A DNA stretch of 57,034 nt, taken from the sequence record AP012536; one strand, written 5' to 3'. Position numbers: made by a program. Of the stretch, positions 9,001-12,000 are shown in pieces. Within the stretch, counting starts at the first letter, position 1, and each line of letters starts with the position of its first letter. The stretch is from Stx2-converting phage Stx2a_1447.

Positions 9001-12000
9001 AGGGTGAGTGCTGGCCCAGCTACCAGCATATTGCTGACCAGTGCGAGATTAGCAAACGTTCTGTGATGAATCATATTGCGGCCCTTTGTGAGTCCGGGCT
9101 GGTAAAAAAAGTCCCCCGGAAAGGTGAAAAAGGTAACTCAAGTAATATCTATCTCCTTCATCTTGATGGGGCAGGAGATTCACTAGGGAGTAGTGCAAAT
9201 AATTCACTATCTGGTGCAGCAAATTCACCAGGTAGTGCAGGAGTTGCACCAGGGGGTAGTGCAGGAGATTCACCCAGAACCAGTCACTCTTTTGAACCAG
9301 TCAAAGAACCAGTCAATGAACCAATAGCTGTTGGTGCATCTGCTGATGAGTCTGTGCGAGTTCGTTCAAACCGACCGGAATACTCTCCGGAGTTTGAGCA
9401 GGCATGGCTGGCATATCCCAAACGTGCTGGTGGCAATTCAAAATCTGCAGCCTTCAAAGCCTGGAAAGCCCGTTTGAATGAGGGGGTAAACCCCGAAACC
9501 ATGCTGGAAGGTGTGAAACGCTACGCGGGCTGGGTATCTGCGATGGGTAACAGCGGCACACAATTTGTGAAACAGGCTGTCACGTTCTTTGGTCCGGATC
9601 GTCATTTCGAAGAATCCTGGGAAGTTCCTGCGGTATCTGTAGCCGGACGTGAGGACCCGTACTTCAAAGCCAGTTACGACAACGTGGACTACAGCCAGAT
9701 CCCGGCAGGATTCAGGGGGTGATCATGAGTCTTTTGAATGACGTTCAGAAATTCATTGAAGCCCATCCGGGGTGTACTTCCGGAGACATTGCGGATGCTT
9801 TTGCAGGTTACTCACGGCAGCGCGTTCTGCAGTCAGCAAGCAAGTTACGTCAGAGCGGGCGTGTGGCTCACCGTTGTGAAGGAGATACACGCAGACATTT
9901 CCCGCGCCTGACTGAGAGAGCGCAGGAACCGGAACCACAACCAGTTCGAGAAACCAGACCTGTGCGCAATTTCTATGTCGGCACTAACGATCCACGGGTG
10001 ATTTTGTGCCTGACCCGCCAGGCGGAAGAACTGGAGTCCAGGGGCTTATACCGTCGTGCTGCAACGGTGTGGATGGCGGCATTCCGTGAAAGCCACTCCC
10101 AGCAAGAGCGAAACAATTTTCTGGCGCGTCGTGAGCGGTGCTTACGGAAAAGCAGCAAGCGCGCTGCATCGGGTGAAGAGTGGTATCTGTCAGGGAATTA
10201 CGTGGGGGCTTAATGAGTAATAAATATTGCCAGGCGCTGGTGGAACTGCGGAACAAACCAGCCCATGAACTGAAGGAAGTGGGCGATCAGTGGCGCACGC
10301 CGGACAACATTTTCTGGGGAATTAACACCCTGTTTGGCCCGTTTGTTCTGGATCTGTTCACTGACGGTGATAACGCCAAATGTGCCGCGTATTACACGGC
10401 GGAAGACAACGCGCTGGCGCATGACTGGTCAGAACGTCTTGCGGAGCTTAAAGGTGCTGCCTTTGGTAATCCCCCATACAGCCGCGCCAGTCAGCATGAG
10501 GGGCAATACATCACCGGCATGCGTTACATCATGAAGCATGCCAGTGCCATGCGTGATAAAGGCGGGCGCTATGTTTTCCTGATTAAAGCTGCCACCAGCG
10601 AAGTGTGGTGGCCGGAAGATGCAGATCATATTGCTTTTATTCGCGGGCGTATTGGTTTTGAACTGCCTGTCTGGTTTATCCCGAAAGACGAGAAGCAGGT
10701 ACCGACAGGCGCTTTCTTCGCTGGTGCTATTGCTGTTTTCGACAAGACCTGGAAGGGACCGGCAATCAGCTACATCGGGCGCGATGAACTTGAGGCATGT
10801 GGTGAGGCCTTTCTGGCGCAGGTTCGCCAGCAGGCGGAAAAACTGGTCAGGGAGATGGCGGCATGACGACGTTAACTCAATGCCAGCAGCAGGTGCTGGA
10901 TATGCTGATTTCTTACCAGAAAGAGCGTGGCTTTCCGCCAACCAATCAGGAGGTGGCAACCATGCTGGGATATCGTTCAGTGAATGCAGCGGTGGAGCAT
11001 CTTCGCGCACTGGAGAAAAAAGGCGTCATCACGATAAAGCGTGGTGTGGCCCGGGGGATAACGCTTCATACCGCGGTGAAGGACGACGACAGCGAGGCGG
11101 TCGGGATTATCCGCTCACTGCTTGCCGGTGAGGAAAACGCCAGGCTGCGTGCAGCCCACTGGTTACATGAGAGGGGTCTGAAAGTATGAAGCTGATTCTG
11201 CCTTTCCCGCCCAGCGTGAACACGTACTGGCGACACCCCAACAAAGGGGCGTTTGCAGGTAAGAGCCTGATAAGCGCGGCGGGGCGCAAATTCCAGAGCG
11301 CGGCGTGTGCAGCAATAGTTGAGCAGTTACGTCGTCTGCCAAAACCAACGTCGGCACCTGCTTCAGTGGAGATCGTGTTGTTTCCTCCGGATAACCGGAT
11401 CCGCGATCTGGACAACTATAACAAGGCGCTGTTTGACGCCCTGACCCACGCGGGTGTGTGGGAAGACGACAGTCAGGTGAAAAGAATGCTGGTGGAGTGG
11501 GGACCGGTTATCCCGGAAGGGAAGGTCGAGATCACTATCAGTAAGTACGAGAAAACGGCGGGTGCAGCCGCCTGATTAAGAGGAGAAACGAAGTATGAAT
11601 AATCTGATGGTCATTGATGGTATTGAAGTTCGTCGTGATGCTTATGGTCGTTACAGCCTGAACGATCTGCACAGGGCTGCCGGTTCTCTGGATAAGCATA
11701 AGCCTGCATTCTGGCTCCGCAATGAGCAAACTGAGCGTTTAATAAGCGAGTTGCAGATTTGCAACTCGGTCAATATAGAGCCAGTTAACGTTATTCGTGG
11801 CGGAAATAACCAGGGGACGTATGTCTGCAAAGAACTGGTGTATGCCTATGCAATGTGGATCAGCCCGTCATTCCATCTGAAGGTGATCCGTACTTTCGAC
11901 ATGGTAACCAGCGCACCGGAAAAATTATCCGGACAGGCTGCTGACAAGATGCAGGCTGGTGTGATTCTGCTGGACTTTATGCGCCGGGAGTTAAATCTGT

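Follow-up and report, generated by a model that had tools for sequence, protein, structure and literature searches.

An initiator-type gene with repeats in its coding sequence

The Shiga toxin 2 (Stx2)-converting phage Stx2a_1447 carries a gene for an 'O-like' protein of 272 residues (8904–9722, + strand) that contains, within its own coding sequence, an array of short repeats and, next to them, a strongly conserved box of 36 bp. This gene, the repeats and the box, and the reading of this DNA as a candidate replication origin lying inside the gene of its own initiator, are the subject of the present analysis. Positions are those of the window, that is, the whole stretch of 57,034 nucleotides of sequence record AP012536. 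The protein is 100% identical to the 'replication protein' of phage Stx2a_WGPS2. It had been taken for a replication initiator in a preliminary description of this DNA, and profile searches bear this out: it matches the HTH_36 family (PF13730) with an expectation value (E) of 1.8e-11 and 44.1 bits against a cut-off of 25, and in the PHROG database it matches phrog_270, 'replication initiation protein' (E 5.7e-88), as well as phrog_8540 and phrog_391, 'O-like'. A match to the DnaD_N profile stayed below threshold. These data support its assignment as an initiator-type winged-helix (HTH_36) protein.

The N-terminal winged-helix domain (residues 1–88, encoded at 8904–9167, + strand) is the presumed reader of the repeats, as judged from AlphaFold2, Foldseek and its co-variation with the class of repeat described below. 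AlphaFold2 confidently models it as a winged helix, with a helix-helix-helix-hairpin topology and predicted local distance difference test (pLDDT) values of 82–94. Foldseek returns generic winged-helix proteins, its top matches including the N-terminal domain of DnaD (2v79), the N-terminal domain of a staphylococcal plasmid Rep protein and Rep-DNA complexes (4pql and 5kbj, the latter a weak match). Homology to lambda O was rejected at the sequence level: the protein does not match Phage_rep_O (PF04492) at E up to 0.01, and BLASTP against lambda O aligns only spurious short segments, with E 0.02 or worse. Residues 91–157, encoded by the repeats and the DNA that follows them, are disordered in the AlphaFold2 model (pLDDT about 30). 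They lead into a C-terminal helical domain (approximately residues 155–240; 9366–9623, + strand), which belongs to no Pfam family and is presumed to recruit the helicase or its loader. Searches with this domain gave nothing credible in Pfam at E up to 10 and only weak helix-turn-helix noise in NCBIfam, and PDB sequence searches found nothing, whether the query was the full-length protein or a profile of residues 150–272 built from 24 sequences. When homologues were sought with only the C-terminal part, most of the matches were fragments.

The DNA that encodes the linker carries five 15-bp sites with dyad symmetry (pattern GKGCA-N5-TKCAC), in which 5-nt inverted arms surround a variable 5-nt centre. 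Sequence and pattern searches confirm what had been noticed earlier, namely that five repeats followed by three ACCAGTCA repeats lie inside 8904–9722. The five sites, referred to below as iterons, are GGGCAGGAGATTCAC (9169–9183), GTGCAAATAATTCAC (9193–9207), GTGCAGCAAATTCAC (9214–9228), GTGCAGGAGTTGCAC (9235–9249) and GTGCAGGAGATTCAC (9259–9273), the last of which is identical to the consensus and directly abuts the conserved box. Their starts (9169, 9193, 9214, 9235 and 9259) are spaced by 24, 21, 21 and 24 bp, so that the period is 21/24 bp and not the uniform 21 bp or so first described. Likewise, the 'perfect palindrome' seen in the fourth repeat holds for its 5-nt arms, GTGCA and TGCAC, which are perfectly inverted and match on both strands, but not for its 5-nt centre. 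When both strands of the whole 57-kb window are searched, the arms-only pattern GKGCANNNNNTKCAC is found at the five iteron places only; about 0.99 scattered chance matches would be expected, and the observed number was reached in none of 100 shuffles. With the full consensus and up to 3 mismatches allowed, 9 matches were obtained against 1.7 expected, a number that again none of 100 shuffles equalled.

To the right of the iterons, GAACCAGTCA occurs three times, at 9277–9286, 9294–9303 and 9306–9315, and these starts are the only exact ones in the window. The first two copies belong to the conserved box, and the third is a 12-bp tandem extra that is present in some relatives and absent in others. 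All iterons and GAACCAGTCA copies lie inside the open reading frame 8904–9722, where, as the preliminary description had proposed, they encode the Ser/Gly/Ala-rich linker. The gene thereby shows, with five sites, the arrangement expected of a lambda-type origin, in which at least three phased, dyad-symmetric repeats occupy the linker-coding part of the initiator gene.

The array itself is variable in length. Near-identical alleles (>95%) from E. coli, Shigella and Salmonella differ by whole repeats, with 1–9 iterons and proteins of 242–302 residues (alignment A1), and the third GAACCAGTCA copy has been gained, lost or duplicated again (EPVKEPVKEPVNEP) among them. Outside the array, an extra iteron-like site, GTGAAGGAGATACAC, lies at 9876–9890 (+ strand) inside the neighbouring PerC-like gene, about 600 bp to the right. 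It has 2 mismatches to the consensus, and a rough estimate puts such chance matches at about 0.1 in the whole window. It may serve the initiator as an auxiliary site.

Repeats and box across homologous loci

For comparison, 80 homologous loci were collected with two N-terminal peptide patterns only, from bacterial assemblies taken as one genome per species; they come from Pseudomonas, Marinomonas, Shewanella, Photorhabdus, Xenorhabdus, Aeromonas, Erwinia and others. Between 3 and 7 dyad repeats are found at the same place in 79 of them. The last spacing is 24 bp in every detected array, and the others are 21–23 bp. At least five lineage classes of iteron arms can be distinguished (GTGmA..TkCAC, GGGCr.., TGCCr..TGGCA, TAGGC.. 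and GTGAC..GTCAC), the arms being conserved and the centres variable across lineages. Each class has its own recognition helix and wing, in proteins whose first 45 residues are almost invariant: EISKRSVMNHI with GPKGNSSN goes with GTGmA..TkCAC, EIxRSTVKxHxR with GELNQSN goes with GGGCr.., and ECSKSAVRxHI with NGKGNxSN goes with TGCCr..TGGCA. The repeat sequence therefore co-varies between phages with the DNA-binding domain of the initiator, another property of lambda-type origins. Four phage homologues, found first by a protein search (phi24B 'O', Aeromonas AsXd-1, Vibrio D67 and Salmonella S135), have 3–5 repeats spaced by 21/24 bp immediately behind the winged helix, and their cores differ: GGGCAGGAGCTGCCC in phi24B, GTGCAnnnnnTTCAC in AsXd-1 (spaced by 24, 21, 21 and 24 bp as in the window), GTGAYnnnnTGTCAC in D67 and AGCACnnnnnGTGCC in S135.

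The peptides encoded by these arrays are unrelated between lineages, with linkers such as SAGDSPG (SAGDS), GGAGAA, PSDxMSP and KSTPVPP. In two Pseudomonas loci (L133 and L148) and one from Erwinia (L154), spacings of 23 and 22 bp, about 265–375 nt into the gene, even shift the frame of one repeat, so that the peptide from an identical DNA core is VQEIH or VTQSH and not SAADSL or GDTESP. The comparison supports the view that the repeats behave as DNA binding sites, as would be expected of an initiator-iteron pair. Iterons in phage initiators of the HTH_36 type were not found described in the literature searched.

Beside the last iteron lies the conserved box (9273–9308), which reads CCC AGA ACC AGT CAC TCT TTT GAA CCA GTC AAA GAA and is proposed here as an unwinding or helicase-entry element. 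These 36 nt are almost identical in the window and the four phage homologues, with AAn as the penultimate codon, despite proteins that are only 38–68% identical. A 29-nt core, unique within the window, is present in all 80 loci (with no more than 3 mismatches in 70 of them and 4–5 in the others), at 330–453 nt downstream of the start codon, and the box is always next to the last iteron, at a distance that does not vary. A scan of viral contigs recovered the box in at least 120 contigs; among 74 distinct sequences, nearly all have an iteron array immediately before it. The searchable literature gave no match to the box sequence.

The nature of this conservation was examined at the codon level in 77 non-identical genes, with amino-acid columns of the N-terminal domain conserved to 90% or more as the reference for the box. 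These reference columns use 2–6 codons, the most frequent of which makes up 58% on average. In the box a single codon accounts for 95–100% (AGA, ACC, AGT, CAC, TCT, TTT, GAA, CCA, GTC and GAA), and this freeze holds even in Pseudomonas, with more than 60% guanine plus cytosine (GC). Moreover, amino-acid-changing transitions (ACC>ATC, TTT>TCT/CTT, CAC>AAC) outnumber synonymous changes. Since synonymous sites are frozen and replacements are commoner, selection in the box acts on the DNA. The constraint stops after the GAA at 9306–9308.

Duplex stability singles out both flanks of the array. Nearest-neighbour calculation gives −32.5 kcal/mol for 9126–9155, just to the left of iteron 1, which makes it the least stable 30-bp segment of 8600–10300 and, when the whole window is ranked, puts it at the 2nd percentile. 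In 78 homologous loci taken together, no segment is less stable against the local background (400 nt to each side) than the box (mean z +1.2 to +1.6), and a second, weaker peak of low stability lies just left of the iterons. The GC content of the box is 44% over its 36 nt. From these features, the box would be the most likely place for an unwinding or helicase-entry element, its 2–3 GAACCAGTCA direct repeats being akin to the 13-mers of plasmid and chromosomal origins. It is also likely to serve as a junction for module exchange, a role that does not preclude one in the origin, because very different iteron/N-terminal modules and C-terminal modules meet exactly there. Two other explanations of the box were dropped: a promoter, with TTGAAC picked out by eye as the −35 element, because the would-be −10 region is not conserved, and a degenerate iteron, because the box is the same in lineages with unrelated iteron arms.

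Helicase supply and a candidate origin

As the preliminary description had noted, no helicase-loader gene is obvious downstream of the initiator. Annotation of the near-identical record NC_049941 shows no gene for a helicase, loader or primase in its first 30 kb, and the same is true of the whole 44.5-kb genome of mEp460, a viable relative with the same module. The C-terminal tail of the initiator, VDYSQIPAGFRG (9684–9719, + strand), resembles the C-terminus of the host protein DnaT, EPDSQIPPGFRG. In BLASTP, SQIPAGFRG and SQIPPGFRG, the nine residues that end E. coli DnaT, are identical at 8/9 positions. This is not homology to DnaT as such, given that only the last 9 residues align and that NCBIfam gives no DnaT match. 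The database label 'primosomal protein I' on these phage proteins is due to the DnaT-like tail.

The gene downstream of the initiator varies within the family and tracks the initiator C-terminus. Initiators with ends of the YVFFDR type are followed by a gp4-like primase-helicase gene (phi24B, S135), those ending in DWENVL, TQWQIP or DTSDDL by lambda-P-like genes, and those with many other C-terminal types by DnaC-like and DnaB-like genes. The C-terminal domain type of the window protein, with its xGFRG tail, is followed by PerC and Dam genes, and DnaB or DnaC was found at none of about 37 such loci, counted as those with at least 2.5 kb of downstream sequence. When the same C-terminal domain ends in other tails (GENLNF, DCNW, KLTF, NFNW, RGNQ and so on), DnaB and DnaC-like genes come next, in all of about 20 loci (for example AsXd-1). 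A second, unrelated C-terminal class ends in a longer DnaT-like segment, with 19–29 similar residues and E 1e-7, and is followed by a DnaC-like gene without DnaB (loci L020, L045, L056, L070, L145 and L177). A portable tail ending in PxGFRG is thus common to host DnaT and to two unrelated C-terminal classes of phage initiators. As it occurs in both classes only where no phage DnaB is present, the tail appears exactly where host DnaB must be used. We infer, with moderate confidence, that it would capture the host DnaB-DnaC complex, either directly or via PriA/PriB. How DnaT itself recruits DnaB-DnaC has been reported as unknown in a recent structural paper (PMC13377028, 2026), and according to a review (PMC4129139), DnaT is highly conserved in its C-terminal region.

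One locus of the collection departs from these arrangements. In L137, from Enterobacter mori, the initiator reading frame ends early, 69 residues after the box. Downstream, a separate reading frame matches E. coli DnaT, and a DnaC-like gene comes after it, an order that recalls the host dnaT-dnaC operon. Either the initiator is frameshifted here, or the phage has a free-standing DnaT-like gene.

Taken together, segment 9126–9315 is very probably the replication origin of the phage, located within the gene of its own initiator, and a mechanism of the following kind is proposed for it. Dimers of the N-terminal winged-helix domain would bind the five dyad iterons, as suggested by the co-variation of arms and recognition helix, and since the iterons are phased about two helical turns apart, the bound initiator would form an O-some-like complex. 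Strands would then open at a flank of the array, most likely in the 36-bp box with its 2–3 GAACCAGTCA repeats; the AT-rich patch to the left of the array is an alternative site. Because the phage encodes no helicase, loader or primase, the C-terminal domain and the DnaT-like tail are proposed to recruit host DnaB-DnaC, directly or via the PriA/PriB machinery. The Ser/Gly/Ala-rich peptide would be a by-product of DNA sites placed within a disordered interdomain linker. The putative origin of the preliminary description gains support from the comparison in that the dyads are kept, the arms track the recognition helix and the peptides are unrelated.

A broader reading in two parts is put forward tentatively, the two parts together being possible rather than probable. 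Under its first part, a superfamily of O-like origins, found in phages of Enterobacterales, Pseudomonas, Vibrio, Aeromonas, Shewanella and Marinomonas, would share CCCAGAACCAGTCACTCTTTTGAACCAGTCAAnGAA as a universal, sequence-specific site of unwinding or helicase entry, independently of iteron specificity and of the helicase system used. The second holds that the xGFRG tail of DnaT and of DnaB-lacking phage initiators would be a peptide that captures host DnaB-DnaC.

Several observations weigh against the origin and its proposed mechanism. Common alleles of the initiator gene have only 1–2 repeats, which means either that few sites suffice or that those prophages are defective, and one-repeat alleles may indeed belong to defective prophages; for lambda, two or three iterons have been reported as sufficient (PMC7466680). 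The box of the window reaches only the 18th percentile of instability, in the 50% GC context of E. coli, and the truly unstable patch, 9126–9155, is on the side of the array opposite the box. An AT-rich tract like that of lambda is missing on the right side of the iterons, and the composition profile shows mild dips only. DnaA boxes and integration host factor sites with at most 1 mismatch are missing from 8700–10000, and GATC is missing from the iteron array. On the protein side, the C-terminal domain has no recognisable fold relative, the tail of the window protein is similar to DnaT over only 9–12 residues (pairwise E 0.01), and no partner or function for the extreme C-terminus of DnaT was found in the literature searched.

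Other explanations of the array can be weighed against the same data. It could be a slippage-prone tandem repeat of the coding sequence that provides a flexible Ser/Gly/Ala linker and has no function as DNA, since the region does encode a low-complexity, predicted-disordered linker and near-identical alleles carry 1 to 9 copies of the repeat, much as neutral tandem repeats vary. However, a 15-bp dyad and 21–24-bp phasing are kept across lineages with unrelated linker peptides, arms are conserved where centres vary, the frame in which single repeats are read changes in Pseudomonas and Erwinia, and the arms co-vary with the recognition helix. We take this combination of features to exclude the peptide-repeat explanation, which keeps only a very slight probability. 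That the protein binds its dyad sites for autoregulation, copy control or other regulation, the true origin being elsewhere in the genome, is easier to entertain and still improbable. Winged-helix proteins with dyad operators are mostly transcription factors, a further iteron-like site exists 600 bp downstream at 9876, and the case for initiation at this segment is a comparative one. Nevertheless, the sites have the position, number, phasing and intragenic placement of known phage origins, the C-terminal domain and tail co-vary with the neighbouring helicase or loader gene as would be expected of an origin-bound recruiter, and the PHROG families label the protein an initiator. In addition, the arms-only pattern occurs nowhere else in the window, a search that did not extend to other kinds of repeat array.

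Alternatives of a more limited scope concern the box and the tail. Mosaic exchange in the replication genes of lambdoid phages is well known, and very different N-terminal/iteron classes and C-terminal domains meet exactly at the box, which could accordingly be kept mainly as a homologous-recombination junction for module swapping and not as a working part of the origin. Yet a linker would need identity only between the partners that meet, whereas the box is kept from Pseudomonas (>60% GC), where its AT-rich rare codons are retained, to Vibrio and Aeromonas, and it coincides with a local stability minimum at a fixed distance from the last iteron. We consider it rather unlikely that recombination is the main reason for its conservation. 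The likeness of the C-terminal tail to DnaT could be coincidental or structurally trivial, with the helicase loaded otherwise, for example in a transcription- or recombination-dependent manner; lambdoid phages can switch to recombination-dependent replication. The shortness of the match in the window protein (9–12 residues) and the lack of a partner assigned to the DnaT tail in the literature searched speak for this possibility, which is a real one even if we do not favour it. Against it, the same tail ends a second, unrelated C-terminal class over 19–29 similar residues (E 1e-7), it occurs in both classes only when no phage DnaB gene comes next, and the C-terminal region of DnaT is highly conserved according to the review cited above.

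Phage context and known systems

Between 8600 and 10300, the window is 100% identical to Stx2a_WGPS2 (AP012537/NC_049941), an IS629 insertion in that record aside, and the identity is 97–99% with Stx2c phages, phiSTEC1575-Stx2k, PhiR phages and mEp460, an isolated lambdoid phage. The Eru6 replication region has Stx2a_WGPS2 as its type phage, and a Rha protein and a HTH_36 protein are listed for it after cI (Llarena 2021, Fagerlund 2022). The identity to this region and the order of a Rha protein followed by a HTH_36 protein assign the window to the Eru6 replication type. The Rha and HTH_36 proteins are shared with the Eru6 description, and the origin, the iterons and the mechanism are absent from those two papers, according to which nothing is known of the proteins that take part in Eru phage replication (Llarena 2021, Fagerlund 2022). 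A match to PF13814 (Replic_Relax), reported in the literature for the Eru6 protein, was not reproduced with the window protein at E up to 0.01.

The initiator gene lies downstream of cro and cII in the early-right (pR) operon, as in lambda-type phages. From reading frames and profile annotation, the gene order is cI-like (5944–6636, − strand), cro-like (6734–6994), cII-like (6987–7538), Rha/Ash (7535–8686, + strand, 383 residues), a reading frame of 74 residues, the initiator gene, PerC-like and then Dam, beyond which LexA DNA-binding domain, RusA, KilA-N, DUF968 and Q follow. The PHROG family match of the Rha/Ash protein begins only at residue 61 of 383, and the annotated start of this reading frame may be too far upstream. 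The next gene after the initiator had been called PerC-like, correctly so: the product of 9719–10213 (+ strand) matches PerC (PF06069) with E 2.2e-9 and phrog_1324, 'transcriptional activator'. It occupies the place where lambda has P, and it is not a helicase loader. This gene is split by IS629 in the otherwise identical Stx2a_WGPS2 record and intact in the window, which therefore represents the uninterrupted form of this prophage type. In the early-left operon, genes for a YfdR-like 5'-deoxynucleotidase and a YfdQ-like protein are found at 3249–3785 and 3913–4737, both on the − strand. YfdR of an E. coli cryptic prophage is reported to bind DnaA, and overexpression of yfdQRST to inhibit chromosomal initiation. 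These genes may be linked to the need of the phage to borrow the host helicase.

The preliminary description had seen in this locus a mirror of lambda, which is true of the layout and not of the sequence family or of the AT-rich tract. The lambda origin likewise lies inside an initiator gene that follows cII in the pR operon, with annotated iterons at 348–432 nt of O, and the window sites are similarly placed in the linker-coding middle of the gene. Lambda and the Stx phages 933W and P27, which have 6-iteron origins, show dyad sites of about 15–19 bp spaced by about 20–24 bp, as here, and their iteron number also varies between phages. In these phages, the sites are recognised by the N-terminal domain, and it is the C-terminal part that brings in the helicase machinery; by analogy, the same division of labour is presumed in the window protein. 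Unlike in lambda, the iteron sequence differs, the protein has no sequence similarity to O, being of the HTH_36 type with a single winged helix, and a family-wide conserved 36-bp box stands in place of the 40-bp AT-rich tract. A PerC-like gene, and not P, comes next, and the initiator has a DnaT-like tail. Initiators of lambda, P22 and L each bind iterons inside their own genes (PMC8022706). Gene 18 of P22 and phage L encodes distant O-type initiators, and their own repeats in its coding region are taken as the origin (PMC8022706). These phages have an adjacent gene for a DnaB-type helicase (gene 12), which the window phage lacks.

Iteron plasmid origins (RK2, pSC101, R6K, F and P1) use a winged-helix Rep protein and an unwinding element made of short repeats. 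The window shares with them a winged-helix initiator, phased iterons and adjoining short direct repeats, and its GAACCAGTCA copies could act like the 13-mer unwinding repeats of these plasmids. In contrast to the plasmid origins, the origin proposed here is intragenic, DnaA boxes were not found and the repeats are not AT-rich; its initiator has one winged helix, compared with two in RepE, pi and TrfA. The relationship to E. coli DnaT (primosomal protein I) is of another kind, as it is confined to the C-terminal peptide, and the window protein has no similarity to DnaT outside its tail. DnaT, for its part, lacks a winged-helix domain for origin binding and works at forks together with PriA and PriB.

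Replication of this phage type is previously undescribed. An intragenic origin is known from lambda; what is unusual here is the almost invariant box together with the lack of an own helicase loader. Replication of Stx phages drives the dosage of the Shiga toxin genes, and the Eru replication type has been proposed as a virulence marker. Eru6 phages are now given a concrete candidate initiator, a candidate origin and testable contacts, and the same replication module is found in SfV-like phages and mEp460. The box points to one origin design shared by many temperate phages of gamma-proteobacteria, in which iteron and helicase-partner modules are interchangeable. Finally, the correlation between tail and helicase gene provides a specific lead on how a DnaT-type primosome engages DnaB-DnaC: if capture by the xGFRG tail is true, it would also identify how the DnaT primosome recruits its helicase.

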